Source: Rhynchobatus australiae (lineage: Eukaryota). Taken from it: 64,000 nt of DNA. The stretch is from NCBI GenBank assembly GCA_034780895.1, contig JAUZTB010000076.1, forward strand, positions 48,999,036-49,063,035. The letters are read 5' to 3'. Position numbers and translations under genes: made by a program. Of this stretch, positions 3,001 to 40,080 are shown piece after piece (the first letter of the stretch is position 1; every line of letters begins with the position of its first letter). The notes below the pieces were generated by a model. It was given only the letters and a program-made list of their open reading frames with translations. It did no database searches and was not told the DNA's origin.

Positions 3001-6000
3001 CCAAAAATCAGTTAAGACAATACATTGCAGCCATTTGTCTTGTAACCATTTTGATTTACAAACAAAAAGCTTGGGTATTTGTGTGGACCAAATTGAAGTT
3101 GTAGTAAGTGAAGGAGTCACTGATGATGGAGCCGTGCTGGTGAGTGTGGGTGATGAGTGATCTGTTGGAAGGACAGAAGTGTGAGGAACAATGCCACACA
3201 TGGAAGACAGAAGCCACAGCTCAGGCTTTGATATAAAGTGGGCAGGAGTGGGTTACACCACTTCATTTGCAAGTAATTTTTCTGAGCTCGTCACCCACAT
3301 TTATGAAGGTTGATTGTATTTGATGTCTTTAAACTAAAATCAGATAGAACAATACATTGCACCCTTTTGCGTTGCAACAATTTTCAGATACAAATAAAAT
3401 ACTGGGGTTTTTCTGTGAACCCACTTGAAGCATTGGTGAATGAAGTAGTCACTGATGGTGGAGCCGTGCTGGTGAGTGTGAGTGATGAGGGATCTGTTGG
3501 AAGAACAGAAGTGTGAGGATCAATGCCACACACAAAAAGACAGAAGCCACAGTTCTGGCTTTGCAATGAAGTGGGCAGGAGAGGATATCATCACTCCCTT
3601 TGCAATCGATTTTACTGAGCTTGTCACCAAGGATTCCGAAGATAGTTTGAATTTGATCTCTTTATCCAAAATTCAGATATGACAATACATTGCAGCCAGT
3701 TGTTTTGGAAACATTCTGATGTACAAACAAAGAGCCGAAATTCTCTGTGGACCTACTTGACGCATTGGTGAATGAAGGAATCACTGATGGTGGAACCGTG
3801 CTGGAGAGTGTGGGTGTTGTGTGATCTGTTGGAAGAACAGAAGTGTGAGGAACAATGCCACACACAAAATGACAGAATGCACAGCCCAGGATTTGCAATA
3901 AAGTGGGCAGGAATCAATAACACTTTTCCCGTTGCAAGTGATTTTAAGGATCTTGTCACCAAGGTTTCCGCAGATAGATTGAATTTGATCTCTTTAACCG
4001 AAAATCAGTTAATACAATACATTGCAGCCATTTGTTTTGTAACCATTTTGATTTACAAACAAAAAGCCAGGGTATTTATGTGGACCTACTTGAAGTTGCA
4101 GTGAATGAAGTAGTCACTGATGGTGGAGCCGCGCTGGTGAGTGTGGGTGATGAGGAATCTGTTGGAAGAACAGAAGTGTGAGGAACAATGGCACACCTGG
4201 AAAGACGGAAACCACAGCCCTCGCTTTGCTGTGAAGAGGGCAGGAGTGGATTACACCATTCCTGTTACATGTGATTTTTTGTATCTTGTCACCTAGTCAT
4301 GTAAGCATAGATTGAATTTGATCACTTTACCTGAAAATAGGTTAAGTCAATACATTGCAGCCACTTGTTATGGAAACAATGTGATTTAAACACAAAAAGC
4401 TGTGGTATTTCTGTGGACCTACTTGAAGCTCTGGTGAAGGAAGTAGACATTGATGGTGGTGCTGTGCTGGTGAGTGTGAGCGATGGGTGATCTGTTGGAA
4501 GAACAGAAATGTTGATAAAAATACCACACATGAAAAAACAGAAGCCACATTCCAATGAACGGGGCAAGAGTGGATATCGCAACTCCTTTTGCAAGTGATT
4601 TTACTGAGCTCGTCACCAAGGTTTCCAAAGATAGCTGAATTTTATCTCTTTATTCAAAGTTATGCTGCAACCATCCATTGCAGACATTTGGTTTTGGAAA
4701 CATTTTGATTTACAAACAAAAAGCCAGAATGTATCTGTGGACATACTTGAAGTTGTAGTGAATGAAGTAGTCACTGATGGCGGAGCCGTGCTGGTGAGTG
4801 TGAGTGATGAGTGATCTGCTGGAAGAACAGAAGTGTGAGGAACAATGCCACGCATGGAAGGCAGAAGACACAGCCCAGGACTTCGCTATGAAGAGGGCAG
4901 GAGAGGGTTTCACTATTCCCTTTACAAGTGAGTTTTCTGAGCTTGGCACCAAGGTTTCTGAAGATGGATTGAATTTGATGTCTTTAACCGAAAATCAGAT
5001 ATTACAATGCATTGCAGCCATTTGCTTTGTAAACAATTTTATTTTAAAACAGAAAGCTGGGGCACTTCTGTGGACCTACTTGAAGCATTGGTGAATGAAG
5101 CAGTCACTGATGGTGGAGCCGTGCTGGTGAGTGTGAGTGATGAGTGATCTGTTGGAAGAACAGGAGTGTTGGTAAAATACCACACACGAAAAGACGGAAA
5201 CCACAGCCTAGCCTGCGATATAAAGTGGGCAGGTGTTGATTACACCATTCCATTTCCAAGTCATTTTACAGAGCTTGTCACCAAGTTATGTAAACATAGA
5301 TTGAATTTGATCTCTTTAACTGAAAATCAGTTAAGATAATATATTGTGGAAACATTATGATTTACAAACAAAAAGCTGAGTTTTTCTGTGGACCTACTTG
5401 AAGCATTGGTGAATGAAGTAGTCGCTGATGGTGGAGCCGTGCTGTTGTGTGTGAGTGATGAGTGACCTGTTGGAAGAACAGAAGTGTGAGGAACAATGCC
5501 ACCCCAGAAAAGACACAAGCCACAGTCCAGGCTTTGCAATGAAGTGGGCAGGATTGGATATCACCACTCCCTTTGCAATCGATTTTACTGAGCTTGTCAC
5601 CAAGGTTTCTGAAGATAGATTGATTTGATATTTTTATCCAAAATTCAGATATGACAATACTCTGCAGTCATTTGTTTTGGAAACATTCTGATTTACAAAC
5701 AAAAAGCCAAAATTCTCTGTGGATCTACTTGAAGCATTGGTGAGTGAAGTAGTCACTGATGGTGGAGCCGTGTCGGTCAGTGTGGGTGTTGAGTGATCTG
5801 TTGGAAGAACAGAAGTGTGAGGAACAATGCCACACATGGAAAGTCAGAAACCACAGCCCAGGATATGCAACAAAGTGGGCAGGAGTCAATAACACGATTC
5901 CCTTTGCAAGTGATTTTAAGGATCTTGTCACCAAAGTTTCCGAAGATAGATTGAATTTGATCTCTTTATCCAAAATTCTGATACGAGAAAACATTTCAGC

Positions 6001-9000
6001 CATTTTTTTGGAAACATTCTAATGTAAAAACAAAAAGCTGGCATACTTCTATGGACCTACTTGAAGCATTGGTGAATGAAGTCATCTGTGATGGTGGAGC
6101 CGTGCTGGTGAGTGTGAGTAATGAGTGATCTGTTGGAAGAACAGAAGTGTGAGGAACAATGCCACACATTGAAAGATGGAAACCACAGAATAGGTTTTGA
6201 TATAAAGTGTGTAGGAGTGGATTACACCATTCCCTTTGGAGGTAATTTTACAGAGCTTGTCACCAACATTTATGAAGGTAGATTGAATTTAATGTTTTTA
6301 ACCTAAAATCAGATATGAATATGCATTGCAGCCTTTCGTTTTGTAACCATTATGATTTACATACAAGATGCTGGGGTTTTTCCGTGGACCTACTTGAAGC
6401 ATTGGTGAATGAAGTAGTCACTGATGATGGAGCCGTGCTGGTGAGTGTGAGTGATGAGTGATCTGTGGAAGAACAGAAGTGTGAGGATTAATGCCACACC
6501 TGAACAGAAAAAAACTACAACCTACACTTTGCTAGAAAGTGGGAAGGAGGTATCTACACCGTTCTCCTCCATAAAGGGTTGTCAACACACTTTAACTGAC
6601 CTTATCAGCACAGACCAAACTGCCTGGAAATGATTTTAATTTTTATCTTTAAAGGAAAATTAGACACAGGCAATGCATTGTTGCCACTCCTGAAGGATTT
6701 TAAATGAAAATGAAAAGCGAGTGCATCTCTGCGGACATACAGGACCCTGTTCAGAATGAAGTCGTCACTGATGCTGGAGTGTGATTGAAGAGTGGAAGAA
6801 CTAAATTGTGAGTGGTGCATGCCACATCGCATCGGAGAGAAACCACAGTCTGGATATTAGACTGAATCTTCAGATACATTGTTGTTTCCTAAAAAAATTG
6901 GGGTTTGGATGACTGTCCTTTTTCAATGTGATTAGCCCAATTCGCATAAATCTTTATTTGAAATTAGGCAAGATATTACTATTTTTGCAACTTAAAACCC
7001 AGCTCTTTTTGGAGCCGTTCATGTTAGATTTCCATCAAAGCAACACTGACTATGAAAACAAGGAAATTCAACCTGAATTGCTGCTGCCTCTGTGAAATCA
7101 ACGTGACCACAGAGAAACGGCAGGGGAATGGGACTATTTAAGCAGTTCAGACAAGTAGCTATGGCTCCTCAACTGGATGAAATGAGTTTCTTGGAGCTGT
7201 ATCACTTTTTATGATTCTACCATCATTCAATATGAATCAGATAATATCAACACATTATGGGAATGTGATTTGTAGCCATTCTGACTTTATTCAAAAGGCT
7301 GGTTATCTCCAATGGACATACTTGAACCTGTTGCTTTTGAAGTCGCCACTGTTTGAGCCGTGCTGGTGGTTGTGAGTGAAGATTGATCTGTTGGAATAAC
7401 AGAAGTGTGAGGATTAATGCATAGCACATCTGAATATATAGGGACCACAGGTGAGGCTTTGCTGTAAATTCAGAGAGAATGGCTTAAAACATTCACTTTG
7501 AGAAAGAGAATCATCGTCTGATTCTTCCGAAGATTGTTTGACTTTCATGTCTTGAAAGGAAAATCAGATACAGTCAATACATTGCTAGCATGTATTTTGC
7601 AAATCCTTTGACTGAAAAACAAAATGCATAGATATTTCAGTGGGCATGTTTGAACCTTTTGTGAATGATGCAGTCCCTGATGGTAGAGCTGTGCTGGTGG
7701 GTGCAGGTGGTATGTTATCTAGTGGAAGAACAAAAGTGTGATGCATGCCATACCTCAATAGGTGGAAACCAGAGCCAAGGATGTGCTAGAAATTATTAAT
7801 GGCTAACACCATTCTCCTNNNNNNNNNNNNNNNNNNNNNNNNNNNNNNNNNNNNNNNNNNNNNNNNNNNNNNNNNNNNNNNNNNNNNNNNNNNNNNNNNN
7901 NNNNNNNNNNNNNNNNNNACTCCTTACAGGCAGCGGTGGGAATCGAACCCGGGTCACTGGCGCTGTAATAGCGCCGTGCTAACCACTAAGCTATGTGCTG
8001 TGCCTTACAAACCAATCTCTATTTGGCATTAGAAAGTGTATTTATTTCTCATATTAATTATTTTTAACTTGTATCCTATCATATGAAGGAATCCTCCATT
8101 TTATATTTCCATCAAAGAAACATTGATAATGAAAATGGAGAAGTTCAGCCTGAATTGCAACCGTCTGTGCTCAGAATGAGGGTGACCATGGGGAAAGAGT
8201 AGAAGAATGGGATATTTTTAGGCAATTTGAACAAACAGCTGCTGATTCACAATGGGATGAAATTATTTTCTCAGTGCTTTATCATTCTCTACGATGTTAC
8301 CATCATTCAGAGAAAATGAGATCCAGGCAATACACTGTGGGAATGTGGTTATGGTTTATATCCATTTTGACTTTAAATCAAAAAGTTGTACATCATTATG
8401 GATGTACTTGAACCTGTTGTGAATGAACTAGTCACTGATGGTGGAGCCATGCTGGTGGATGTGAGTGATGAGTGATCTTTTGGGAAGAACAAACGTGTGA
8501 GAAGTAATGCCATACCTGACAGGACAGAAGCCACAGCTCAGACTTCACGATAAACTAGGAAGGAAAGGATGACACCATTCTCCTTGAAAATGGTTGCCCA
8601 CAGACTTTAAGTGAGCTTGTCAATTAGATTCAATGCAAGTGTGAGCATGGCAAACTGAAGGGAAGCTCAACAATCCGACTGAAGAGGCCCCCACAGTCAG
8701 CAGAGTAAGGATTAAGCACAATTAATGTAAATCACGTTAAGGTCATTGCATGGTTTATCAATAGAGTTTGCATCAAGCACAGAAATATTTCAAACAGTAT
8801 AAAGCCCAAAACATGTAAAAGTGAGTGATCTCAATTTATATATCTACAGATGCGAGAGCAGTAAATGCTCAGCCATGCTGTTCAGCAGAATCCAGAGGTC
8901 ACTTGCATTCAGAACGCATATTGCTTCCTATGAGTAAACCTATACAAAAGGTGACAATTCTTCAAATGGCGCACAGGCAAAATGAAAATGACATTGAACT

Positions 9001-12000
9001 TTCTGCCTCAAACCATTTCATTCCATTTGTATCAAGACAAATAGAACATTTTGTTCACATTTTGAAGAGAGATCCAAGCAGGATCACTTAAATTTGAAAT
9101 CAAACTTTAAAGTAGTATTTAAACTTTAGGTACATTTATTGTTGCTTGAAGAATTGGAGTTTGGATTACCATTCCTCTAACAACGTGGTCAATTCAATTC
9201 ATAATTTCAAACAGGTATCTATTTCACATTGGATAATATATTTTTTTACAACTTAAAACCCGTCTTGTCATGGAATCCTTCATTTTGGATTTCTGTCAAA
9301 GAAGCACAGACAATAAAAATGAGGAAATTTGGCTAGAGTTGCAGCTGCATGGGGAAAGCAGAGAAGTGGGATTATTTAAGGAGTTAGAATAACAGTTGCA
9401 ATGAAGCAATGGGATGAAATGTATTTCTCAGTGCAGTTTCTCATTCTCTTTGATTCTGCCATTGTTCAGTGAAAGTCATGTACTGCCTGGCATTTTGTAT
9501 TTTATATCGAATTTCTAGTGTTTTTCTTTTGGGTTATAACTTATTAATATTTTACTTACTTCTGAATGAACAGGGCTTAAGTTTTACAGAGATGTACTAA
9601 CAATAGGGGCAATTTGATTCATGTCTGAAGGTGATTCCGAAGTATGTCGACCAAGCAGAGATTGTAATCCCACAATTGTTGGGGATCCGACTATCTTTAC
9701 TGCATCCTATGGATTTCAGAACTTAATGGAGTATTTGTGGAAGCCAGGAGCAGTTGGTCTGGTTCAATGACTTAGCTATATAGCTCAGCAGAATTCAGGA
9801 GGTGAGATCATCCTTGTTCATAAAGTATACCGTATGAAAAATGTGCCTCATACAGGAAAACATCTATGGAAGTCAGAACATCACACCTGGTCCTCCAGGC
9901 AGGATTAAGACAAAATCGATCTATTTTGCCCAATCACTTCCATTCCACTTGCTCTGGCATGTGAAGTCTTATTTAATGATGCATGAGTGCTGGGGATGCT
10001 AGTAGTCACTGGCTCAGTAGACGTGCTGGTGAAATCTGCTGTTGGATGAAACTGAAGGACTTTACGGTTGGAACCAAAAGTGCATTAAGTAAAATAACTT
10101 GTCCTATCACACTCAAAAACTTCCTGTCACACTCAAAAACTTTTTACCCTTGTTAAAAAGGATGAATATTCCCTCTTGACGATATTCCAATCCAAATCAT
10201 TGAGCCTTAGTTTGTTCACAAGTGTGCTGTTTGATATATTATTGTCCATATGATCACTTGTGCGATTGCAAGAGAAACAAATCCTTCCAATTTATGTTTT
10301 GCTGTCTCAGGGAACTTCCATTCCCAGTGGAAAAAAATGATCAAATGTAATTGCTTCAAGACAAAATTCACCAATACATTGACGGAATTTCGGTGAATTT
10401 TGTCCAGCAGAGAAACAATGATATTTGACGCTGAAATTGTTACTTGATTTTGCAAGAAGGCATGGAAGTTTTAAAGCTATTGAGTTCACTGCAGTGTTCA
10501 CTCAAAACCTCCAAAAGAAATACATACAATTTTGATTTAAAATCTTGCCTGTTTCCTTGGTTTTATCATGAGAATTAACAACATCCAGGAACTTTCATCT
10601 ATGGTTCTGATGATGTTGTTCTTTTAAGAAAATGATTTTGTTTTTGCTTGTCATTTATTTCATTATGAAAATGGTGTAACACTTGCTGCTGTATGGTTCC
10701 AATTGATTTCCTTTCATGTGTTATCTTGAGTGAAATGAGCCAATATAAAGGCATATATTTGGCTTTGCTCAACAATAATGTTCACAGATTGCCAAGAGAG
10801 ATCACTCAATAGCTATGACAAATAGGTATAGTGATTGATAACTTCTCTACTGGGACAGGCTAATAATGGTGGTCCCACTGCTATATCATCAGCTGAAAGT
10901 TCCCAAACAGAACCTGGGGCCCTGTACACTTCAGTACTGCTCCAGGCAATGCAATAACTCAGTAACTTTAGGTCAGCTTCATTGAAATCTCCATAGCCAC
11001 TGCTGGTACTGCATCCTTTTGATAATTTCTTGGTTCATTATTCCTTTAAAAATAGGGTAAGATTGGGCACTGCAAGTATTCTCCAGGTAGAAAGATGTTA
11101 CCATCCACATTGTCTCAGGAACAAATATCAGGTACCAATGATGCTCACACTGGATTTTGTAACAAATGTATGGATTTCCAACATATTTTAAGACCTTGTT
11201 CTTTAGCAGCAAGAAGAAAAAACATCATCTTAGTTTCTCCTTGAGAATGCTACTAATGCTGTGTTATGACATTTAAAAGTAGAAGATGGACCATCCTTTT
11301 AAGATGTGTGCATCGATCTAATGAGGAAAGTCTGGGAATATAACTCAATGGTAAATCTGTGCTGAGTTTGAAGGGTACATTCTAGCTCAGTGCAAGTGGG
11401 GATTGCCTCATCAGCTGCCAGACAAGAAGGAGCTAAAAATCTATCCCCATATTTTCTATCCAGGCACATCCTGCTGGCAAGCAGTAGTAGTAATACAACA
11501 CAAGATGGTTAATGCTGTTTGATGCCTGAATTTGTATTTCTTATTTTGTGGTCAGCAGAATTTCTACTTGAAGTGTCAGTGGAAAAAAAAATGGATAGAT
11601 TGAAATTTTGGAAAAAATATTAACTGAGGTTTGGAACTATCAGGAATGCAAATTGCATTCCAACATCAATGTAATCCTACTGTTACAATACAGCAGTGAT
11701 GCTAATGCACAACTTACCTTGATAATTATTACTATTTGTTAATATCCAACTTATTTACGGTGGCTAGGGGCAAGAGGCAGCTGAATCATGACGTGTTGCT
11801 TTCATGGGTGGGTGGGTGACAGTCATAAGATTGTCAAGAGGTTTATGGTTAAAAAAATCCTTAAAAGAACACCAAATCCCCATATTAGACAATAGGCTTA
11901 ATCTATGGGAAGCTGGCGTGTGAAAAAAAAATAAAAGGGACTTTCTTAACTTCATGGATCCAACAGTCATTTACTCACATTGCAATTGGCTTTGGCAAAC

Positions 12001-12506
12001 TGTCAATCAAAGAACTGGAAAAACATCCAAAAGTTTAACTGAGCAGTTTAACATTGTTCATCTTATTGTTTAACGAGCACTTTTGCAGAAGGCCAAAGGA
12101 GCTTTTTTTGGTTTTGATACAATTCCCAGTATTAATTATTTATGCAGATTGTTCGTCAATGAATTTGTTATTTGGCAACAGACCTGTATCTTTGAAATAA
12201 TTAAAGCATATTTTTTAACTCAGATCAGAAAAGTTGTTATGAAACACATAATNNNNNNNNNNNNNNNNNNNNNNNNNNNNNNNNNNNNNNNNNNNNNNNN
12301 NNNNNNNNNNNNNNNNNNNNNNNNNNNNNNNNNNNNNNNNNNNNNNNNNNNNATAATGACAGCATTAAACAAGCTGGGACTTCAACTTTCTGTTAGACAA
12401 AGCATACAATACCCATGCACTGCATACAGAGTAACTGTATCTGATTTGAGTGAAAGGTATTTACTTGGGTACTTACTCGCATTTGTAGGAGATGAAGTGG
12501 ATGAGC
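1..12506 (-). CDS. Multi-exon N-terminal region of a mucin-stalk (S/T/P-rich) glycoprotein gene, partial and continuing beyond position 1; CD45/PTPRC-like layout (candidate only)
   Basis: More than 20 short exons with pyrimidine-tract/AG acceptors and GT donors on the minus strand. All are multiples of 3 and open in phase 1, encoding S/T/P-rich peptides with N-glycosylation sequons. Confidence 0.8.
312..380 (-). CDS. 69-nt mucin repeat exon NHSSLTLTSTAPPSVTTSFTTVS
   Basis: ttcttccaacag|exon|gtaggt, phase 1-1. Confidence 0.82.
647..715 (-). CDS. 69-nt mucin repeat exon SHSSLSLTSMAPPSATTSFTNAS
   Basis: caacag|exon|gtaggt. Confidence 0.8.
978..1046 (-). CDS. 69-nt mucin repeat exon NHSSLTLTSTAPPSVTPSFTNDS
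   Basis: caacag|exon|gtaggt. Confidence 0.82.
1294..1362 (-). CDS. 69-nt mucin repeat exon NPSSPTLTSTAPPSVTTSFTATS
   Basis: caacag|exon|gtacgt (variant donor). Confidence 0.78.
1627..1695 (-). CDS. 69-nt mucin repeat exon NHSSPTLTSTAPPSVTSSFTATS
   Basis: caacag|exon|gtaggt. Confidence 0.82.
1961..2029 (-). CDS. 69-nt mucin repeat exon NHSSLTLTSTAPPSATTSFTNAS
   Basis: caacag|exon|gtaggt. Confidence 0.82.
2291..2359 (-). CDS. 69-nt mucin repeat exon NPSSLTYTSTAPPSVTTSFTANS
   Basis: caacag|exon|gtaggt. Confidence 0.8.
2624..2692 (-). CDS. 69-nt mucin repeat exon NPSSPTLTSTAPPSVTTSFITTS
   Basis: ttctacag|exon|gtaggt. Confidence 0.82.
3093..3161 (-). pseudogene. Pseudo-exon copy of the mucin repeat (donor GT mutated to TT)
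   Basis: Plus strand reads gaccaaattgaag instead of gacctacttgaag; acceptor and frame are intact. Confidence 0.75.
3425..3493 (-). CDS. 69-nt mucin repeat exon NPSSLTLTSTAPPSVTTSFTNAS
   Basis: caacag|exon|gtgggt (variant donor). Confidence 0.72.
3757..3825 (-). CDS. 69-nt mucin repeat exon NHTTPTLSSTVPPSVIPSFTNAS
   Basis: caacag|exon|gtaggt. Confidence 0.8.
4090..4158 (-). CDS. 69-nt mucin repeat exon NSSSPTLTSAAPPSVTTSFTATS
   Basis: caacag|exon|gtaggt. Confidence 0.82.
4423..4491 (-). CDS. 69-nt mucin repeat exon NHPSLTLTSTAPPSMSTSFTRAS
   Basis: caacag|exon|gtaggt; putative branch motif ctcac altered. Confidence 0.72.
4747..4815 (-). CDS. 69-nt mucin repeat exon NHSSLTLTSTAPPSVTTSFTTTS
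   Basis: ttccagcag (NAGNAG)|exon|gtatgt. Confidence 0.8.
5080..5148 (-). CDS. 69-nt mucin repeat exon NHSSLTLTSTAPPSVTASFTNAS
   Basis: caacag|exon|gtaggt; putative branch motif altered. Confidence 0.75.
5398..5466 (-). CDS. 69-nt mucin repeat exon SHSSLTHNSTAPPSATTSFTNAS
   Basis: caacag|exon|gtaggt. Confidence 0.8.
5729..5797 (-). CDS. 69-nt mucin repeat exon NHSTPTLTDTAPPSVTTSLTNAS
   Basis: caacag|exon|gtagat (weak donor). Confidence 0.65.
6061..6129 (-). CDS. 69-nt mucin repeat exon NHSLLTLTSTAPPSQMTSFTNAS
   Basis: caacag|exon|gtaggt. Confidence 0.8.
6394..6462 (-). CDS. 69-nt mucin repeat exon NHSSLTLTSTAPSSVTTSFTNAS
   Basis: ttccacag|exon|gtaggt. Confidence 0.82.
6741..6800 (-). pseudogene. 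Degenerate mucin exon copy (homologous acceptor lost, in-frame TGA)
   Basis: Reads ...CCAGCATCAGTGACGACTTCATTCTGA...|gtatgt; the homologous caacag acceptor is missing. Confidence 0.65.
7322..7387 (-). CDS. Diverged 66-nt mucin exon NQSSLTTTSTAQTVATSKATGS
   Basis: ttccaacag|exon|gtatgt; exactly one codon shorter, frame preserved. Confidence 0.75.
7650..7718 (-). pseudogene. Diverged mucin exon copy NNIPPAPTSTALPSGTASFTKGS with dead donor (GT>AC)
   Basis: ttccactag acceptor; exon end TTCAA is followed by acatgc. Confidence 0.6.
7919..8004 (-). mobile_element. tRNA-derived V-SINE 5' head
   Basis: Reverse complement has A/B-box-like tagcttagtggttagc...gggttcgattccc followed by ctgtaaggagt, as in the full copy at 47025. 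Confidence 0.85.
8408..8476 (-). CDS. Diverged 69-nt mucin exon NHSSLTSTSMAPPSVTSSFTTGS (weak splice sites)
   Basis: cccaaaag|exon|gtacat; open frame. Confidence 0.5.
9949..10038 (-). CDS. Candidate 87/90-nt mucin exon (T)DFTSTSTEPVTTSIPSTHASLNKTSHARA, distant paralog of the repeat exon
   Basis: Acceptor ttcatccaacagcag (NAGNAG). Shares CACCAGCACG and CAGTGACTACT with the repeat exons. The donor is uncertain (A|gtggaa keeps phase 1). Confidence 0.6.
12477..12506 (-). CDS. 30-nt phase-1 micro-exon xSSTSSPTNA
   Basis: ttttctttcag|GCTCATCCACTTCATCTCCTACAAATGCGA|gtaagt; strong sites, S/T-rich, length divisible by 3. Confidence 0.8.
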
Positions 12507-14235
12507 CTGAAAGAAAATTAATGCAATTTGATCAGAATCATCCATGTGTAAACTAAGACATATTTTTTACAATGCAATACACTCACATGTAGCATTTTGG
12601 CTCATTTCCGAGTTTGTAATCTCACATTCCAGTTTAAAAGTCTGTTTGATATTCTTCATAACCATGAAATTTTCACCAGCTTAATTACACATAAGAGGTC
12701 AGAAGGCTTCCTATTATCTGCCCACAAAGCCAATCAAATTGATTAGCTACAAGTTTGTACCTTTCTTAAAAACCTCCTAACATTATTTTTCAGTAATTGG
12801 AGAATGCAATAGTACCTGACTTCTACAACATTTTATTTCAATTAAAGTCAATGGAAACTCAAAATATTGAGAGAGATAAAACAAACTGTTATCACACTAT
12901 CTTATTTGGTTTACACAGAGATAAGATCTCCTTAGGTCAGATATCTCATTTGGTGCCTACTGCACATTTGCCCATTTGTATTGCTAACCTTTTGCCTGCA
13001 CAATTATCTGGATACATTAGAACTGAAATGAAAGTTGGTTATGTGGAACCAGAGAAAATTAGAACGGTAACACCCAACAATTTAGAATCTTTTAAGTTCT
13101 CACGATCATGGTTAAATTGTAATGATTTTCAAGTTATTGCATTTTGCCAAAACAACAGATGCAGGTGTTGGTTGATATGCTCTGAAACTCCTGTTTAGAC
13201 AAACATGACAGCAACTCCTAAAACTGCAATATCTACCATCAAAAGGGATTAGGAGAGCAGACACAGAAAAATATGACAACTTCTCAGGTCCCCTTTGAGT
13301 GACACACCTTCTGACTTAACTAATGCTGTTCCTTCATCATTACTGGGTTAAGCGCTCCCTCTGTGCTTCACTCAAATCATCAGGATCACACTTTTACTTA
13401 ATATTGAATCTTTTTTTTAAATTTTCTGTCATTTACCTTAATTGAACTAATAATAGTCTCTGGAGCTAATTGAAGGTGAGTGCTGATTTTGTGAACCTCA
13501 CAGAAACATTATATAGACTTGACAATCACCTATATTATCTCTGGGGTTACATGGGATTTATATATGGAAACAGACCTCGTGGCCTATTGCATTTATGCTC
13601 CACTCAAGCCTTTTCTGTCAGTTCCACCCTTAGCTCCCTTTCCCTCGTGTGCTCATCCAGCTTCTCCTTAAATGCATTTATACTATTCACTTCAATCACT
13701 CTCTGTGATTGCAAGTCGTTGGAAAGCCAAGTGGATTGCTGTTAAAACTGGCACAGAAGAAATCTGGTGAAAACATTGTGGCTTCTCCTGCCCCCTTGTG
13801 GGTTTTAACCAATGGTGCATCAGTGACACTAGAACAACAGCTGCAGCAATCGGTAGCTAAAGGCATGTCGCTTTCAACATATATTTAGTTCTTTGTACAT
13901 ATGGTAATTGCACAGCAACTGTCCTTCTTTGACCACGGCTTAGGATACTGCAATAAGCCCAGTGAGTTTCAACAATCTTTCACCTGAAATTTTCATGTTC
14001 TGGAACACAGGATCGTTGTTCTGGAAAAGTTTGTTTGTTGTACCCTTCTGCTACTTTCCTCTGAGGTTGGGAAACCCAGAAGAAAAGATTTCTCAATTGT
14101 CCCATAGAATTTAAATGGAATGCTTCTCTGACTGGGGATGACACCTACAATTAGCTTGATAGACAAGCTAGAGATCTTTAGTGCTTCATTAGGACAGCAT
14201 ACTTCATTGGAGAAATAAAAGGAATTTTGGGGTGA

Positions 14236-14346
14236 AAAAACACTGATGCTGGAGGAGCTCAGCAGACCAGGCAGCATCTGTGGAGAAAAGCAACATCATA
14301 GTGTTTTTCATCCAGATTCCAGCAGCTGCAATGCTTTGTTTCTCTA
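14236..14346. mobile_element. Penelope-type terminal-repeat remnants (collapsed head-to-head pair)
   Basis: gatgctggaggagctcagcagaccaggcagcatc is joined to ttttcatccagattccagcagctgca. Confidence 0.65.
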
Positions 14347-14864
14347 GGAATTTTGGGGTGGCAGGGGATGGGGTAGTGGTTGAGTGAGCCTATCTGGAGA
14401 AAGGTGTCTGATTTTTGGAGAGGGTACAAGTGTGAGGAGGACCACTTAAGGAGGAGGTACATAGCCTCTGGTAGAACATGGTTATCACTACAGATTTGCA
14501 AGTCTTAAATGAACTGACTGGTGTTTTCAGCCAGAAATCACTCAGGAAAATTCTGCCTAGTTCATCCTGGAACCTCTAAGCTCACTGTACACACTCAGGC
14601 CACCATCTTAGCTATTCTGGTTTCAAGTAGGTGATTTGAAACACAACAGCAGGACACAAACACAGAAGTTCCTACGTCCTCAAAACGGAAGGAACAATCA
14701 TTGACACTGCCTCACTCATTGGCCCCAGTTGATATTTCTTCAATCAGCTTTGTACAAACGAGTGAAGCTTGAGATCGCAGACCCAATCAGTTTGGTTTTT
14801 GGTTTACAAATATAATGGACTATCCTGAGCTCTGAAAAGCACCAAGAATGGTGTTGGGATTGAT

Positions 14865-15618
14865 TCAATGGTGTTGACATTGACTTCAGGAAGGGGGCGG
14901 TGCACATGCTCCTGTCTCCATCAATAGTGCTGAGGTTGAAAGGGTGAGAGCTTCAAGTTCCTCAAAGTGAAAATCATCAATAACCTGTCCTGGTCCAACC
15001 ACATAGACCCCATGGCCAAGAAAGCTCACCAGCACCTCTACTTCCTCAGGGAGCTGAAGAAGTTTGGCATGTCCCCTTTGACACTCACAAATTTTTATTG
15101 ATGCACCATAGAAAACATCCTATCTGGATGCATCACAGCTTGGTATGGCAACACTCTGCCTGTGACCACAAGAAACTGCAGAGAGTCATGGACAGAGCTC
15201 AGCACATCAGAGAAATCAGCCTCCCCTCCATGGACTCTATCTAAACTTCTCACTGCCTTGGTAAAGCAGCCAGGATAGTCAAAGACCCCACCCAGCCTGG
15301 ACCTTCTCTCTTCTTTCCTCTCCCATCAGGCAGAAGATGCAAAAGCCTGAAAGCACATACCACCAGGCTCAAGGACAGCTTCTCTCCTGCTGTTATAAGA
15401 CTCTTAAACGGTTCCCTAGTATGATGACCTCACAATCGACCTCGTTATTACTTTGAACCTATTGTTTACCTGCACTGCACTTTCTCTGTAGCTGTGACAC
15501 TTTATTCTGCATTGTACGACCTCAATACACTGTGTAATGAATTGATCTTTGAACAATATGCAGGACATGTTTCTTACTGTACCTCAGTATAGGTGACAAT
15601 AACAAACCAATTCCAATT
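14865..15618 (+). mobile_element. Rex1/Babar-type LINE 3' end
   Basis: Translates to KKAHQHLYFLRELKKFGMSPLTLTNFY*CTIENILSGCITAWYGN, the typical C-terminus, followed by 3' UTR and ccaatt tail. Confidence 0.88.
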
Positions 15619-16049
15619 GCTCAGGCTTCTCCTCTACCTAGCAGCTTATGTGGGCTGCAGTCTTCCACGAGACATGTAGGCACCTAAATTTTGTATCCAT
15701 ATCCCAACGAGTGAATATCTTGTGAACCACACAACATGAAGAACATTTTCCTCTGGTCCAGAAGTGTACACAACCGAACAATTCTCAATTTACTTCAAAC
15801 TTCATAATGAGTAACTTAAGATTGTCAGGAATTGATTTTCTTCACTTAACAGTGTGCTTCATTCCATCTCTGCACAGTAGAGATCTGAGGGCTGTTTAAA
15901 GGAATTATCAGATATCAGGCCGCAAACATTCACCACAGGAGGGCCATGGGTTTCTCAGCTAGTCCAAAGGCTTTTGGCCCCCTGATTTGCACAGAATGAG
16001 TTGGCCAATTATCACATCAGGACACCATCGATCCTGGATATCTACAACA

Positions 16050-16559
16050 CATGATGCACACACAAGGTCTGCAGAATCATAGATGACCCCTCTCATCCCT
16101 CCCACGACCTATTTGTCCCACTGCCATCTGGCAAGCAGTACCGGAGCATCCGGGCCAGAACTACTGGACGGCACAGCAGTTTTTTTCCAGCAGGCTGTCA
16201 GGCTCCTGAATACCCTGGAGACATTTGCAGACTAATGCCGCGTCAAAAGCCCTGATTTGCACAATGGCGTATAAGAACTTTGGCTGCTGCTGAACATGTT
16301 TATACAATTAGTGTAACACACCGAGTTCTGTATTTTCTTCGTCCATCTTTGTTTTGCACTAACTCTGCACTAAATTTGTATTCTGTATATACTGTTTTAT
16401 GCACTACTTGTACTTGCACTATTTTTTTGTCTGTGTTTATTGCATATCTTCTGTTTTATGCATGTCCTCTGTTGTGTGAGTTTAGGGGAAAACGACATTT
16501 CGTTCCTCTATGTGTTTTTATAACATATGGGTGAATGACAATAAAGTAACTTGAACTTG
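16050..16559 (+). mobile_element. Rex1/Babar-type LINE 3' end (second subfamily)
   Basis: RIIDDPSHPSHDLFVPLPSGKQYRSIRARTT...FFQQAVRLLN; ends with aataaa followed by an (acttga)n tail. Confidence 0.85.
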
Positions 16560-18049
16560 GCCACTGGCTGGATGCACAGAGTAACCTACTTTGTACCGAA
16601 TGAATAATATTGATTTGTTCCTTTGTAAGCATGGTGCAGTCTTGCACACCAAGTGCATGCAAAAGAAAAGCAATTGCATGGGATTATTCAATAGAATGCA
16701 AAGGAAAACGCGTCTGGTTCTTGGAAATTTGGGATAGGAAAACAGAAAATGCAGGGAATAGATACAGCAGGCCAGTTAACACCTACAGAAAGAGCTAGGT
16801 CAGGTTAATTTTAATCAGAATAAGGAATTACTGCAAGGTGTCAAACTTTGTTCTTCAGGCTGGTGGTATCTTCCTTAACTATTCAACAGAGGTTCATCAA
16901 TGTGGTAGAATTTTACCAACAATGATACATTGTAGAAATCCATTTTTGGCAACAGAAAAAGAGCAAAGAAATAGCACTTTGAAACAGAAGTCACCCTGAA
17001 TGCACTATCAGTTGGCGATGGCAATGAATGATAACTTAAGGTTGGTCAACTATGTGGCAAATGTTGGTGCATGTACTCTGGCATAATTGCCATGTTCAAT
17101 ACAGTGTTGTAAGTCAAGTAGTTAGTGCTTTGCTGTCACATAATCTCCATATGTTTTACACTCCTTCAATTAATCCACTTAATTATGACCTAGAATCTAT
17201 TTTTTCATTAAGAGTTATTGGTCTGGAATTCATTGCCTTAGCAACATTGATCAGGAATGATCATCTGCCCCACCAACCGCACCCCCCCCCAACCAAGTCA
17301 TCCCACAACAAATCTCCACCAACATTTAATGGAGAACTGATTAAAACATGCCAGCAGCAAGATGGGACATAGCCAATGGCATCTGTGAATGCATGTTGAT
17401 TGTCAATTTCTATAATCTCAATCCCAATCTTACTATATTTGGGCATGGGCTGAGTCACTTACTACACCTTTCCTGGAACTAATAAAGGCACATGCTATTG
17501 TGGTACAATTTTCCAGTCCTGCTCTGAACTGCATGATTTTCCTGCTGTAATTTTTTCTTTCCTTCCCACATAGTAGTCGTGTTCTGTAGCAAAATAAGAC
17601 GATTAAATTTTGTTTTGATCGCTAAATTCTGAGCTGTTAAAGAAAACAGCAGACTTTTTTCATTAATATATTCCAGCATGTGTGGTTTAATTTCAGCTGC
17701 AGGGTTTGTGGAAGTTTATACCATATAGACCATTTGTAGAATTAGATGCAAATTTTTGAAGGTACCCAATTAATTTCTATTATCTCTCACACCAAGTCTT
17801 AGTAAAATCCAAAACTAATTGTATGATGTTAACCTAATAACAGAATGCCGAAAGATGGGTTCCTGTGCAACATATGGGACTAATGTAATACTTTGGCACC
17901 ACTTATCTGTCTGAGATTTTGCTGAACTTGTAGATAGGCATGGCAAAACATATTACTGTTAAGCATGCTGCATTTTCAGAAAAGATAACAGCACAAAGCC
18001 CTGGGTAGAGCTCATCTGGAGAAATATCAGCATCATAGTTTGAAAGTAA

Positions 18050-18430
18050 TACATCAGCATTAGAGGGAGCACCATGTAGATTTACCAGACTCTAAGGGTT
18101 AAATTATCAGGAAAGATAGCATAAACCAGGATTATTTGATCTGGAATTTAGAAGGTTGAAACAGGAATTAATTGAGGTTTGAGATCTGTAGAGATAGTGA
18201 TATTTCTGCCAATTGTCAGTCGGGGACTAGAGGGCACAGTAGAAGATTGACAGCCAGAACTTTTGGGAAATGCAGTTAGGAAATACATCTAATCCAGAGG
18301 GTGATGGAAGTGTGGAATTCTCTTCCACAAATGACAAGTAGTTTGAGATCAAATGTTAACTTTAAACCTTTGATCAATAGATATTTGTTAGCCAAAAGTA
18401 TTAAGTGATTTGGAGAATAAGTGTCATATG
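18050..18430 (+). mobile_element. Degenerate CR1 LINE 3' region
   Basis: CR1 hallmarks gactagagggcacag...agagggtgatggaagtgtggaattctcttcca. Confidence 0.7.
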
Positions 18431-18477
18431 GAATACGCGTTTGCCACACAATCAGTCTCTTTGACTATGTGGCAGAC

Positions 18478-19300
18478 ACTGGCAAGGCCAGCATTCGTTG
18501 GCTATGTCTAATTTCCCTTGAGAAGATGGTACTTGGTTCTTGAACTGCTGCAGTAACTGAAGGCACTCTCACCATGACAAAGAGAATCTAGGATTTAGAT
18601 TTAGCGGTGAAGAAGGAGTTGCAAGGTATTTCTAAGTCATGCTGGCATGCGACATAAAAGGGGAAATGTGCAGGTGATCATGTTTCCATACACCTGCTGT
18701 CTTTGTCCTTGTTGATCTAGAGATTAAGGATTTGAGGTATGTTATTAAACAATGTTTGTGAGTAATTGCAGTGCATTTTGTAGATGGTACGCTGCCAAAT
18801 GCATAAGTGGTGGGGAGAATTAATGTCTGAAATGGTGACTGGAGGGGCAATCAAACAGCTACTTAGTTCTGCATAGGGTCAAGCTTTCTAAGCATTATCA
18901 GCTGCACTCATTCAAGCAAGTGGAGAGTATTTCTGTATTCCTTAAAATGAGATTTTGGGGAATCGGATGCTGGTGACTTACTGCAATAGGTCAGCCCCTG
19001 GCATGCTCTTGTGGTCATTGCACTAAGGGCGAGTTCAGTTAAATACTGAATTAATGCCAGGACAATGATCGAGGGAGACCTGGTGAAGATAATGCCACTG
19101 AATTGGTAGGTGATTAGACTCTAATGTTGGCGGTGGTCATTTCCTAGCGCGTATATGACACAAATGTTACTTGCTACTTATTGTCGCATGCTTGATATTG
19201 CTCATGATTTGCTGCAGGCAGGCATGTGTTTCTTCTTTTCTGAAGAATTGCAAATGGACTTCAATATTGTGCGATCAGTGAGTACTTCTACTCCAATTTC
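18478..19300 (-). mobile_element. Old L2/CR1-clade LINE remnant (same family as 25200-27060 and 51680-53380)
   Basis: Shared 3' motif ggcaaggccagcatt...cccttgagaagatggt and internal blocks across the three copies. Confidence 0.65.
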
Positions 19301-20344
19301 GGAGAACTAAGGGTCAACCACTTAGAGTCGTGCAACAGACCACACCAGATAATGCACAGTAAGAAACCAGATGGGTTTTCCCACAGCCAGGAACTTCATG
19401 GTTACCATTACTAAGACAATTTTAGCTTAAATTTCAGATTGCTTAATTCCCGCAGATTCTGTGGTAAGATTTGAATTCATGCCCTCACATCATTACTCCA
19501 GGCCTCTGCCTCACTGGACTGCCAACTTAATCTTGACATTACCATTCCCTTTACTTTAAAATGGTTTACTCCCGCTGCTGCCTGCAAGTTTAAAAAAAAG
19601 ACAATCTTACAAGAGCTTACGAATGTGCTTGCTATATCCTTTCAGTCATCTTCTGATATACTATCGCTCTCTCAACATTTCTATAACCTCTTTTTTGCAT
19701 TCTTTGACACCCATTTATCTTAGTTCTTATTTTTGTCGACAATGTTTTTATGAGCCTTCCATTTTTTTTCTGCTTTTATTAAACAAGGCCCTTAATGTGA
19801 CACCTTTCCGAAATTATAGATCAGGAATCGAAATTAAATTAGAAACTACAATTTGGTGTGTCACACTGATCCTGTTGGAAGTTTTTCTTCCTATTATCAA
19901 GTAGTTTCTCTAATAGAACCATTAAAAGAGGCTTGCCTTCCTTTTAATTGCACACCACTGTTAATCCTGCACTAATAATGTGTATATCCTAGCACCTGAC
20001 ATACTCCAGTCAAAGAGGAATGCATTGTTTCCCAGAAGTACGTTGTATTTAAGACAATAATACTTATTATATCTCCAAGCACCATTAAGTATTCAGGTCA
20101 GGTCATTTTTAAGTTTCTGCTGCATTATGCCAAGGCCTTCAAGAACTGAAAGTGAACAATTCTATGTCAAAAATTTCCTGATCACTGATAATTACAAATT
20201 AATTCAAGGGTCGAGGACTGGATGCAGCCACTTGAAGTTTAGTTCCTCAAGAGTCTACCCCTCCCACCATATTTGGCATGAACTGGGCCCAGATTACAAC
20301 CTAGCCAAATCTGTAATAAGTTAACTGGGTTCTTTCTGATTGCC

Positions 20345-20585
20345 ATTCAGCTGAAGGCTAGCCATTGCATGACAGACAAAGCACACAGTAACAGGTTCCG
20401 GTTGTGGTTTCTCCTGCTTCTGTTTACTTTTTTTCTTCTTTTGAAAACTTGCAGAGAAGGAAAGGGTGCAGTGCAATGTGGTTGAGAATTTAAATTATTC
20501 AAATAGCGTAACTTCTGTGTTACTATAGTGATCATCTTACTTGCTTATCTATATCATTGCACAGATAAACCACAGCTTCCCCAGA
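20345..20585. promoter_or_regulatory. Candidate haematopoietic enhancer (E-box, ETS, 3x RUNX, FOX, 2x GATA, PU.1-like)
   Basis: CAGCTG 20348; TTCCGG 20396 next to TGTGGTTT 20403; TGTTTAC 20421; TGTGGTT 20477; CTTATCT 20544; AGATAA 20563 overlapping AAACCACA 20567; GCTTCCCC 20575. Confidence 0.55.
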
Positions 20586-22669
20586 AGAAGCCATCAGTTC
20601 CTCAGTGACAAAATACAATTAAAAATTTAACATTCTGCAATAGAAATTAAAGACATTCAGTGCATTAAATTTTTATTATTTCATCATTTTTTCCCTACAT
20701 GTAGCCACGACTGAGCCAAGAGTTTCATTCTTGCTGTAAAAGACGTCCAAAATGTGTTATTGGAAGGTGGGGGAGTAGAGCTGGAAATAAGGCCCAAGGC
20801 AACAACTCTCCAGGGTTGATGTCAACAGCTATTTCCCTCAATCACATAGAAATACTATAGATTGAAAAAAAAAATTACATGCCAAAAACAGGTTTGTCAA
20901 AAGTTAATTTTAGGGGCCTAAAGACTGGATTCAGTTCAAACTGGGTCATGCTTCCACTGTAGTTCATACTCCTCATAAGTTATCCTGGAAATTTAGGCCA
21001 CCAATCTCACTAGGCTATTACTCCGAAGACATGAATGGGCCTGTAGCCAATGGCAGAATGCAGAGCGGTACACTAGGCACTATCCAAAAGCTTGCACAAG
21101 GAGAGAAGGCAATCAGGAGTCAGTGAGCAGTGGCTAACATGTACTGAGAAGGCGGGAGGAGCAAGCTCTCTCTGGCACAACACATTAATTACAGAAGTTC
21201 AAACCTACCTTTCACATGGCAAACACCAGTGGTAATGTCAAGGATCTGTGGTTGGACTGCTAAAGACATGTAATGGGCCTAATATCCATTTTAAGTGCAT
21301 GCTCCTAATGGTCTTTCATGGGGTTATAGAATGTGGGCAGAATAAAATGAGATAAGAGTAGGATTAGTGTAGATAGATGCTTGATGAGCAGTGTGGAAAC
21401 AGGCCCTTCAGCCCACTGAATCCAATTTGTTAACTCTGTGATGTCTATGGCTCTGTGGTCATAAGCAGTGCAGCTCTGATATAAAGTGAACGTGCTGTGT
21501 CAAACCCCTAGGCACCCTTTTACAATTTCCATGTGGACAAAGATGGGACAAAACACTGAAGTGGTTCTGAAACCAACGGCCGCCAACATGAAGTTAAACG
21601 TTGAGCCACAGATGGCATCAACTTCCTAGACTAGATGCCGAGAGAAAAGGGACATAGATGGACACAGGAACAAGACAACCTGAAGGAACTGCTACATAAT
21701 GTGTAGTAGCCCTGTTATAAAAATGCATTTGAGTGAGGCTTACGGCATGGTAGAAAGGTGTGTGCCATGCAATCTCAATCATGCATTAACATAGTAGCAA
21801 TATATGATAACTGAGAAGACCAAAGAGAGGGGGAAGTATTCATGGGTTATTATGAAGTGAGATCCAGGAGGGTCCAGCAAAAAGCTGCAATTTAGAGCCA
21901 ATCTTTATGGTGGTTTGATTTAATGACTTTGGATTCTTTAGTAAGATACCGATCAAGCAAATCAAAAATAATTTACATGCCATCATTTAGTTTCACATAA
22001 ATGAGACTTGTGAAGAAGCATGTACACACAGAAAAAAAATCACAATCACAAGCTGAGCGGGCATAAGTGACAGTGCATGGACATCTTTCAGAGAACCCAT
22101 CTGAAACATGAAAGAAAGTAAGCTAAAATGCAGATATGTGTTGTTTCAGACTTCCTGTGTTTCTACTTTAAATTTTTTAATTGAAAGAAGGAAGTTAAAA
22201 CTAAGATTCTAAAAGGGGTCAGAGCAATCCATGAGTAATAGTGGAAGAAACAAACAAAAGAGAAAAACAAACTAGTGAAAGGTATGGTGGAAGCTTAAAC
22301 ACATTAATGGACTTCATAACTGACATGTAAAGATCTGCATACCTAGTTTTTGCACACCTGCACATTTTGTCTTTTGCGGTCATAACTTTCATGTGACACC
22401 ACCTTGAATATATAAAAACATAACTAACTGCAGTCAATCACTATTGTTTCCATTCCTCCTTGAAGGAGAAGTAGCTCTCACAGAAAGGTAACAAGTGATT
22501 GTATTCCATTAACTAAAAGATTGTATTCCATTAACTATGATCATAAAAGTTTTCAAAATACTCTTTACTGGGGCTGGGCATTTCAGCATTCACAACAGTG
22601 CCCAGAAAAAACACACAAATCACACAGTATTTATTCTCTAAGACCAAGTGCCCAGAAAATCTCAAACCT

Positions 22670-22870
22670 TCTACCTCGTTATGGCCTTGCACCTTATTGT
22701 CTACACTTTCTCTGTAACTGTAACCCTTTATTCTTCATTCTGTTATTGTTTTCCCCTTATACTACCTCAATGCACTGTTGTAATGAAATGATCTGTATGG
22801 ATGGCATGCAAAACAAAGTTTTTCACTGTACCTCAGTACTTGTGACAGTAATAAACCAATTTACCAATTT
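22670..22870 (+). mobile_element. Rex/Babar-type LINE 3' UTR fragment
   Basis: Matches 15430-15618 (acctcgtta...cactgtacctcagta...aaaccaatt). Confidence 0.75.
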
Positions 22871-23139
22871 ACATATCGATACTGAAGCAATTATGATGTT
22901 GAACCTATTCCTGATATCAATACGGAATTAGCTACAGGATCTCAGAACAGCAGTGAGGTAAGTCAAGAGGCTGCGAGTTTCTCAGTTCCAGGAACCAGAA
23001 CAACATTAGAGACAAATACACAATTGAAGAGATCAAATAGGCGAAGGATGCCAGTCAACAGATTGAATAAGTAATGACTCTCTATAACTGTGAAAAAGGC
23101 AGAAACAGTATTTTTTTCCCATATATACTTAAAAATGTA

Positions 23140-23452
23140 GCAGTAGGCTATTTTGCCCATTGAGTCTGCAGAGCAATCCCATACACCACTAATTTTCCCA
23201 GTAACCTATTCTCCCCACATTCCCATCACCTCCCCCGGATTCTACCAGTCACCAACACACTAGGGGAAATTTACAGTGGCCAATTGACTTTCCAATCCAC
23301 ACATTTTGGGATGAGGGATGAAACTGCAACATTGGGGAAAACCTGCGGGGTCATAGTGTGAACATGCAAACTCTACACAGATATCACCTTAGATCAGGAT
23401 TGAACCTGGGTTTCCGGCGTGGTGAAGCAGTACTCTGCTAGATGTGCCACTA
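23140..23452 (-). mobile_element. V-SINE
   Basis: Reverse complement of V-domain (aaactctacacaga...ggattgaacctgggt) plus CR1-like tail. Confidence 0.75.
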
Positions 23453-23540
23453 TCTTGTGTACTTGTATATTGTATACAGAGGACACAGCAATGCCAGGGT
23501 ACACATATATTTTATGAAGTAAACTTTACATATAGGAATT

Positions 23541-23635
23541 GAAAAACAAACTGCTGGAGGAACTCAGCAGGTCAGGCAGCAGCCATGGAGGGAAAGAACA
23601 GTCGACGTTTCAGGTCAAGACCCTTCATCTGAACT
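23541..23635 (-). mobile_element. Penelope-type terminal repeat with degenerate hammerhead core
   Basis: Reverse complement agttCAGATGAagggtcttgacctGAAACGTCgactg...gctgcctgacctgctgagttcctccagca. Confidence 0.75.
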
Positions 23636-24659
23636 ACATATAGGAAATTCCTTATATTTAAAATTAGAAATAAACACCCTTATTTAAAGTTCTGATGTCT
23701 TCTGTTATTACCAGAACCCCCCACCACATCTGATGTCCACCTTCGGATACATTATAATAGTGAAAGATCAAACTAATTTATATTAAAGTAAAAAAAAAGT
23801 CATATAAGAAATTTTTACTTGCAGTGCATGACACTAGTTGTCACATATTAAATCATCTCAGACTCACCTAATTGAAACTTCCTCGATTTTTAGGCTAAAT
23901 CTATCCTTTAAACTTCCCTGTGATTTGATCCAGTTTACTTTTCAACCTTCTTTTTTTGTAGTGCACTGGAACTGTATTATTATTCACCTAAATATTCTCA
24001 TGCAAAATCATGTTCCAGTAATGTGATCAATGATTTATTCATGAGCATGCAAGGGGAGGGCCTGTGAAGTAGTCTAGCTGCCAGAGTAATAATTAAACTA
24101 TTACTGGTTCTCTCTGCAAGCTGACTGGAAGCAAAATTCTGCAGAACGGTTTAAAATGATAGCTTGCAGTTTTCAGCTTGCCAATGTCTATATTTTCTAA
24201 TGAGTCGCCTAGCTCTGCAGTGCTGGATCATATCCAACAACTCTTAAAGCACATCCGTGCAGTCAGCAGAAATGTGCACTTGATGCCATTCGTGATCTGA
24301 TGCAACAAATTTTTTACATGTAAAAAAATTTGATCACGCAGTTAATTTAACCATGACAGTATTAAAGCGGAGGCAAAAGGAAGTATGACTGCAGATGACC
24401 CACACTACCTCAGGCCTACTTTTAGGGTCAATGTCCTTCAACTTCCACTTTACTTCTTAGACTGTAATTGAACCATTCGATATAAAAGAGCTGCATGAGT
24501 AAAAAAAGTGCTATGTTCAATGTCTAGTCAAAATTGAGCAGAGCAATAAAACCAAAGCTGATTGGGTAACCTTTTTTAAAAACTTGGCCCAATCAAATTT
24601 CTAAGACTTAATATTTGGGGAAACTCAAATGCAAGGTTAAACAGTAATTGCTGAACCAA

Positions 24660-25070
24660 GAGAGCTGGAGTAAACTCTATATTAAAGGAAATATTTGTTT
24701 AATCCATTTGTGCTGATGCTGGCACAAATGTATGGAAAGTAATCAAAAAGGAAAATTGAATATTCGTCTCATTGTAAAATGGAGGACAAAAAGGAAGTGA
24801 TGTTTCAGAAATGCAAAACCCTGGTCTAATTCCCCATCTACAATACCACATTTAAAATCAAAAAGTGATTAATTAAATATAATAATACAGAGAAACTATT
24901 TTCTTTGGTGGAGGAATCCAGAATAAGTGGGTATAATTATAACATTAGAAGTAAGCATTTATAAATGAAATTGGGCAGCATTTGTCCACAGAAAGGGAAG
25001 TGAAAGTATGGAATTCTCTCCCCAAACAGAGATTGAGTCATGGAGTTTTTAATGTAAGACTGAATAAATA
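24660..25070 (+). mobile_element. Degenerate CR1 LINE fragment
   Basis: aggaagtgatgtttcag...ctggt and agaaactattttctttggtggaggaatccagaa...tggaattctctccc. Confidence 0.6.
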
Positions 25071-25199
25071 CTACAAAAGCCAAATACTGGGGAGGCCAGA
25101 TGTCTGAGATATCAACAGAAAATGCTATATTCAACAGGAAAATCTGGAAGAAAGGATCAGAATTAACCTTTCAGGTATTTCTGTATTTATTCAATTTTC

Positions 25200-27060: not shown

Positions 27061-27269
27061 AGAACATTCATCTAATATAGAAACAGAAAATACTGGAAAT
27101 ATTCAGCAGGTCAAACCATGAAAGAGCAGCAGAGTNNNNNNNNNNNNNNNNNNNNNNNNNNNNNNNNNNNNNNNNNNNNNNNNNNNNNNNNNNNNNNNNN
27201 NNNNNNNNNNNNNNNNNNNNNNNNNNNNNNNNNNNCTGTGTCATTCTCTTCATAATCTTAGGATGGGTT

Positions 27270-27545: not shown

Positions 27546-27729
27546 ATAACTTCTTTGAATAATAGTGAACTTTTGTTTATAATTATCATTTTCCTGACAG
27601 ATTGAATAATTGTTTGTAAAAATCAACATTCAGTGTGACAGCATTTATTAATTATCTCACAGTAATGGAACATAGAATGTTAATCTAACCCAGGTAAATT
27701 GCTACCTTCAGTCCAGATATAACAACAAG

Positions 27730-40039: not shown

Positions 40040-40080
<41 letters not shown>

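Follow-up and report, generated by a model that had tools for sequence, protein, structure and literature searches.

The mammalian CD45 gene (PTPRC) carries its variable exons 4, 5 and 6 (RA, RB and RC) between the small exon 3 and the part encoding the folded ectodomain. Skipping of exons 4-6 is described as following activation via hnRNP L/LL (PMC4730250), with these proteins driving the skipping at CA-rich silencers (PMC4730250; PMC3823766). For human CD45, stalks of 41 residues in the RO form and 202 residues in the RABC form are reported, with an overall span of 22 versus 40 nm (PMC6170634). In channel catfish, the alternatively spliced N-terminal exons are expanded: 'thirteen alternatively spliced exons' are named in the title of Kountikov et al. 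(2004; PMID 15236932), duplicated exons of this kind are also treated by Kountikov et al. (2005; PMID 15868142), and the title of a later paper refers to activation-dependent isoform use (Kountikov et al. 2010; PMID 20547174). Here, a stretch of 64,000 nt from the 2.23-Gb genome of the rhinopristiform ray Rhynchobatus australiae (the window; contig JAUZTB010000076.1, hereafter C76, positions 48,999,036-49,063,035) was analysed together with flanks of 180 kb on the left and 100 kb on the right. Judged by its sequence, the locus is the 5' part of PTPRC/CD45 on the minus strand. Positions left of the window are given as window-relative minus values.

In the direction of the gene, a 30-nt micro-exon is followed by serine/threonine-rich (S/T-rich) phase-1 exons, both of which had been noted in a first-pass annotation of the window and were present with the sizes given in Table 1. 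The exons extend beyond the region covered by that annotation into a tandem array of ~332-bp units that spans positions 1-6549. Tandem Repeats Finder reported arrays of 332-333 bp at 1-2767 and 2868-6549, with 77-78% matches. Each unit consists of a 69-nt phase-1 S/T-rich exon and an intron of ~263 nt. Twenty units were counted, 19 of them complete and one cut by N at the window edge. The acceptor AG was retained in 20/20 units and the donor GT in 18 of the 19 complete ones, and the 19 complete exons contained neither a stop codon nor an indel. Their translations comprise 55% S+T and 12% P. Sequons of the type N-X-S/T are created at 11 of 18 consecutive unit junctions, and the 19 exons contain 11 further ones. 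The explanation that we favour with good confidence is that these frame-preserving exons are likely optional cassettes behind the micro-exon, which would set the length and the sugar load of the CD45 stalk in steps of ~23 residues.

Altogether, 25 intact-looking optional exons were found on C76: the exons beginning at 8476 (weak acceptor) and 7387, 18 array units and five exons left of the window. If all were used, 566 residues would be added to the protein. This count leaves aside one GC-donor exon, the unit cut by N, the unit lacking the donor GT, three intact units on an unplaced contig and one unit on another chromosome-scale contig. Hence at least 25 intact-looking exons, among them near-identical 69-nt units in a 332-bp array, stand against three in mammals, and a potential stalk of ~600 residues against the 202 of human RABC. 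The catfish gene sequence of 2005 reportedly holds 18 such exons. Like this ray, catfish shows an expansion of N-terminal variable exons in a fish; the ray is cartilaginous and has more units, the catfish is a bony fish, and the two are likened by layout, not by exon sequence.

The assignment to PTPRC is carried by exons left of the window on the strand of the array, where matches to the Pfam profile PF00102 were located 57-77 kb from the window. The juxtamembrane wedge exon had human CD45 as the sole PDB match listed at E<=1. The exon of the first protein tyrosine phosphatase (PTP) domain, D1, scored 90 bits against CD45 and 63.5 bits against the next PTP, and CD45 was also the top-ranked PDB match of one exon of the second domain, D2. 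With the wedge exon as query, a 50%-cluster search produced 52 matches, a ray CD45 being the best; a homologue search with an FN3 exon yielded zero candidates. The D1 exon was 100% identical to PTPRC of Pristis pectinata over the aligned 95% of the query, and mapping of the P. pectinata protein recovered the Cys-rich/FN3, transmembrane (TM), D1, D2 and terminal exons in order. Fourteen cytoplasmic exon stretches were open, with 582/613 residues (95%) identical to P. pectinata PTPRC and 77-82% identity to eight other elasmobranchs; these values set the ray close to sawfishes but apart from the P. pectinata record. D1, predicted from these residues to be catalytic, has an intact HCSAGVGRTG motif and a WPD loop, and D2 is degenerate. 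D2 contains the acidic loop SENQSDEELSSDESDDEES, an element described as unique to CD45 (PMC2213029). Seven exon matches in the Cys-rich/FN3 region, 35-66% identical, together span residues 226-526 of the P. pectinata protein; N covers the beginning of the first Cys exon. One half-domain exon was hit by Pfam fn3 (E 1.9e-4, 22 bits, below the 25-bit cut-off), and a Pfam search of two further FN3-region exons gave no match. The TM helix ALIGFLAFLIIATTIALAIVLY is identical to that of Pristis. Within the window, P. pectinata PTPRC models have matching exons, in the same order, for the micro-exon and for the first S/T exons. On the opposite strand, a miR-181 pair was located ~122 kb beyond the last exon; ~90 kb right of the window lies a V-ATPase G gene in divergent orientation. 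Both agree with the mammalian order around PTPRC of ATP6V1G3, the miR-181 pair and NR5A2. The first-pass annotation had proposed a chondrichthyan CD45/PTPRC with Cys-rich, FN3, TM and tandem PTP exons left of position 1; exons of these types were found there on the minus strand, and the proposal is borne out by the tandem PTP and wedge exons, the P. pectinata match and the synteny.

Exon usage was read from PTPRC models of other elasmobranchs, which are RefSeq predictions and not cloned cDNAs. For P. pectinata (XP_051866866-86 series) 15 of 20 isoforms were listed; for eight shark and ray species 12-15 isoforms each were examined, out of 12-35 cluster members per species. The models of P. pectinata, Mustelus asterias, Mobula birostris, Hemitrygon akajei, Narcine bancroftii and others share the repeat type and the skip/include pattern. 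Those of P. pectinata contain one-to-one orthologues of the flanking single exons of this ray, and include or skip the orthologues of 7387, the array type, -6668, -9275, -13859 and -15519 in many combinations; the shortest listed form (1141 residues) has none of them. In the eight species the stalk measured 15-112 residues in the shortest and 145-378 residues in the longest listed isoform, the maximum being that of Mustelus. Since these eight model sets skip or include homologous repeats, the array exons are likely cassettes. The repeat type xHSSLTxTSTAPxxVTT is common to sharks and rays. With repeat cores chosen by a pattern that misses some units, 18 of the 19 window units and 35 of the 49 other cores had a member of their own species as nearest neighbour. 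This grouping by species indicates a shared repeat type with separate turnover in each species. A lineage-specific expansion, as suggested in the first-pass annotation, is thus only partly correct: sharks and rays have the repeat type in common, while the copies group by species. The 20 array units of this genome contrast with two in the listed P. pectinata models, a comparison with gene models and not with the P. pectinata genome.

Divergence within the array was assessed on the 19 complete exons and on 18 introns, after removal of an intron that contains N. Departures from the commonest letter amounted to 104/1311 (7.9%) in exons, 588/4054 (14.5%) in intron cores and 22/537 (4.1%) in the last 30 intron bases. 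Sixteen gap blocks were counted in the 18 aligned introns and none in the exons. Maximum-likelihood relative rates, computed on 18 units, were 0.73 for exons, 1.15 for intron cores and 0.45 for acceptor regions (2dlnL 34.7, 2 degrees of freedom). A similar contrast was seen in a ~0.9-kb pair formed by the -4795 unit and a fragment on the chromosome-scale contig C64, in which 1 of 69 exon bases but 75 of 743 flank bases differ. The tree of array units was poorly resolved. Exon distances were unrelated to those of adjoining introns (rho -0.21), and divergence was unrelated to spacing (rho 0.00), which marks the array as a mosaic. The exons are rich in CA dinucleotides: they average 14.2 each, whereas synonymously recoded versions average 8.1 +/- 2.1, and the observed value was reached in 9 of 5000 draws. 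The simplest reading of the slow exons and acceptors is constraint on splicing information.

Under the cassette explanation, each array exon would be skipped or included by splicing, as in the gene models of the relatives, and the stalk would range from a CD45RO-like ~40 residues to ~600 residues with all 25 intact candidates. Extrapolated from human RO and RABC, one unit would correspond to ~2.6 nm and all 25 to ~63 nm. If the mammalian pathway applies, the array exons would be O- and N-glycosylated. By analogy with mammals, a longer stalk may be more strongly excluded from close contacts of T-cell and B-cell receptors (TCR/BCR), with altered signalling thresholds as a result, and the CA-rich exon sequence may bind hnRNP L/LL-type repressors. 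Such binding would account for constraint that falls on silent as well as replacement sites. The mosaic pattern suggests that the array grew and was reshuffled via unequal crossing-over or gene conversion.

Several observations weigh against this explanation. The pN/pS of the array exons is 1.33; 13 synonymous and 36 replacement variants track the site ratio of 19.3/46.7, and selection on the protein sequence is therefore not evident. The lack of stop codons in the array exons is not significant (1.6 expected, P about 0.19). Because the units are related and mosaic, P values for the array are not strict, and part of the signal could come from gene conversion centred on the exons, which could look like constraint. 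The motifs CACA, CANRCA and CANNRCA of hnRNP L/LL, as defined in PMC3823766, were not enriched in the array exons, in which the ray differs from mammals. Just two array-type exons occur in the listed P. pectinata models, which combine five optional exons at most; inclusion of the array exons in R. australiae is putative, by analogy with predicted models of its relatives. For positions 1-8600, a look-up listed no RNA record, a result neutral with respect to inclusion. The effective height of mammalian RO and RABC is described as differing modestly, less than their length (PMC6170634), and the functional step per exon may therefore be small. Finally, in this assembly the TM exon contains an in-frame TAA directly after the helix (C76 ~48,952,605, minus strand), where P. 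pectinata has Tyr; some exons of the gene lie under N, so that the reading frame is visible only in part.

Some of these points would also suit a recent amplification within the same gene that is mostly silent or hardly spliced, in which few exons, such as the orthologues used in Pristis, reach the mRNA and conversion keeps the rest intact-looking. A pN/pS of about 1.3, exon and intron distances that are uncoupled and a divergence independent of spacing, as conversion predicts, the presence of only two array-type exons in the 15 of 20 P. pectinata isoforms listed and the plainly dead state of several older flanking units are all compatible with it. We nevertheless regard a silent array as unlikely, given that divergence within the unit is lowest in acceptor regions and exons, that splice dinucleotides are nearly all intact despite ~23% intron divergence, and that the Mustelus, Mobula and Narcine models chain many repeats. 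The exons could also form a choose-one module, mutually exclusive as in Dscam, or one that is always included, and would then not act as additive cassettes. Mutually exclusive clusters are typically built from near-identical tandem exons that agree in length and phase, as the exons of this array do, and zero or one array-type exon is found in many P. pectinata models. Consecutive array-type exons do occur in the models (two in P0131, four in Rhinoraja, more in Mustelus), and the shortest models carry none or few, at odds with exclusive choice and constant inclusion alike. Introns of about 263 nt impose no steric exclusion between exons and would not force such a choice, and we consider both arrangements quite improbable.

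The TAA raises the further question of a broken or null CD45 allele that stops at the end of the TM helix, with an array drifting without function. No second CD45 locus was seen among the 40 scored of 142 candidates, in a stricter first look, and lineage-unique replacements are slightly commoner than in Pristis (11-17 versus 7-11, with eight outgroups). This excess is not significant (17 versus 8, P 0.11), the D1 catalytic motif is intact, and the 14 translated cytoplasmic stretches are open and close to Pristis throughout. Loss of CD45 is described as impairing T and B cell activation in mammals (PMC4730250). Two contigs of one sequencing run, possibly made from the source sample, match the locus letter for letter and stop to either side of the codon (3348-3568 and 3571-3800, in local coordinates where the TAA is 3571-3569), and none of eight listed pieces bridges it. 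Since the remaining gene shows no significant decay, a dead gene is less likely than a misassembly or a heterozygous nonsense allele; a null allele appears very improbable to us. The chance that the locus belongs to another sialomucin is negligible. S/T-rich exons by themselves assign no family, and the first-pass annotation had kept endomucin, the CD34/PODXL family and adhesion GPCRs as alternatives. These are excluded: FN3, TM and tandem PTP exons follow on the strand of the S/T exons in place of a SEA, EGF, GAIN-7TM or short-tail layout, the window exons match PTPRC models residue for residue and in order, and the synteny agrees with PTPRC.

The preferred reading, optional cassettes in the CD45 stalk, can be extended to a bolder version that we put forward tentatively and consider rather doubtful. 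In it, the ray would have one of the largest CD45 variable-exon repertoires, with 25 to ~40 modules including unplaced and gap-hidden ones, serving as a graded, activation-controlled ruler of ~2.6 nm per exon and up to ~85 nm, again extrapolated from the human forms; selection would act on splice signals and not on the protein, and the array would turn over lineage by lineage. A further three intact array units sit on the unplaced 986-bp contig C39449, which probably belongs in an array gap; their identity to window units reaches 86% at most. A 4,368-base N run adjoins the array and would have room for 13 more units. On C64 (~54.883 Mb), an orphan ~0.9-kb copy of the mucin unit, 85% identical to the -4795 unit, ends at an N run; it is likely mis-scaffolded, or possibly transposed. 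A second CD45 copy at that site was rejected, as 60 kb there matches the repeat unit only. Other PTP-domain genes occur on C76 at 19.88-19.92 Mb and 105.35 Mb and are unrelated to the CD45 locus.

Table 1 Exons and repeat units of the PTPRC locus; negative positions are window-relative and lie left of the window
Feature	Position	Strand	Remarks
Upstream intron, visible extent	12507..64000	-	signal-peptide exon may be under N
Micro-exon, 30 nt, phase 1, xSSTSSPTNA	12477..12506	-	acceptor tttcag, donor gtaagt; orthologue of exon 3 (first exon after the signal peptide)
Decayed repeat remnant	9991..10050	-	no in-frame donor seen; match E 0.54
Repeat exon, 69 nt, open frame	8408..8476	-	possibly usable; weak acceptor AAAG, donor GTACAT
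Dead repeat unit	7650..7718	-	donor GT lost
S/T-rich exon, 66 nt	7322..7387	-	orthologous to the first optional exon of the P. pectinata models
Decayed repeat unit	6729..6826	-	without acceptor AG
First array exon, 69 nt, HSSLTLTSTAPSSVTTSFTNAS	6394..6462	-	S/T-rich, phase 1
Array exons, 69 nt, first bases	6462, 6129, 5797, 5466, 5148, 4815, 4491, 4158, 3825, 3493	-	
Array exons, continued, first bases	3161, 2692, 2359, 2029, 1695, 1362, 1046, 715, 380, 47	-	47 cut by N
NAGNAG acceptor (cagcag)	4818-4815		would add or drop one residue
Array unit with donor TT in place of GT	3093..3161	-	possible in-frame donor 33 nt further on
Intact-looking exons left of the window	-4795, -6668, -9275, -11884, -13859	-	-9275 with weak donor
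NAGNAG acceptor (cagcag)	-13859		would add or drop one residue; both forms (TDNSS, NNSS) in Pristis models
Further decayed older units	-7018, -11168, -12154		
Exon with GC donor	-15519 to -15590		either a GC-AG intron or a recent loss; orthologue used in Pristis models

The micro-exon matches DSSTLSPTSE, found in 15/15 listed P. pectinata isoforms, and is the only S/T/P-rich phase-1 candidate upstream of 7387 in a scan of the whole window. No match to the conserved elasmobranch signal peptide was obtained in 12507-64000 or in the next 100 kb, a region with many N runs; the queries were five signal peptides from elasmobranchs, run by tblastn against 344 kb of joined sequence, and a genome search was likewise negative. 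The very long upstream intron of the first-pass annotation is consequently plausible as far as it can be followed; its length is not fixed, because N runs could hide the signal-peptide exon. A candidate first exon at 37590-37492 on the minus strand, with ATG, MVQLAPLRLFVFTFCTILCF, phase 1, strong splice sites and a hydrophobic 20-residue frame, was rejected as signal peptide because it is unlike the conserved MSKFACLKYL... peptide; the stretch may be due to chance or be an alternative first coding exon. The intron also holds a perfect-looking 23-bp triple repeat at 41898-41965 and a (TG)15 microsatellite at 40040-40069.

A nearby ETS/RUNX cluster had been taken in the first-pass annotation, which gave neither coordinates nor motifs, as a sign of leukocyte expression. 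With site patterns of our own, the best 300-bp cluster in 6601-64000 contained 3 sites, and at least 3 were reached in 163 of 200 crude shuffles. This null favoured the finding of a cluster, as its total was 54 sites versus 109 observed. The cluster is not above chance and lends no support to leukocyte expression.

A literature search that covered few subscription papers and no supplements retrieved no paper on a CD45 exon array in elasmobranchs. The expansion of optional CD45 exons is already known from catfish and visible in RefSeq models of sharks and rays; the locus described here adds an unusually large array. The gene itself is ordinary; what the window contributes is the array's size and an indication that the nucleotide sequence is under constraint. 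CD45 isoform length is central to the kinetic-segregation model of lymphocyte activation, and mammals provide only three optional exons to vary it. With at least 25 equal-sized modules, this ray would allow a graded test of stalk length against signalling. Gene models built from limited RNA can under-count such exon arrays. The array exons would, in addition, supply isoform markers for leukocyte subsets of sharks and rays.

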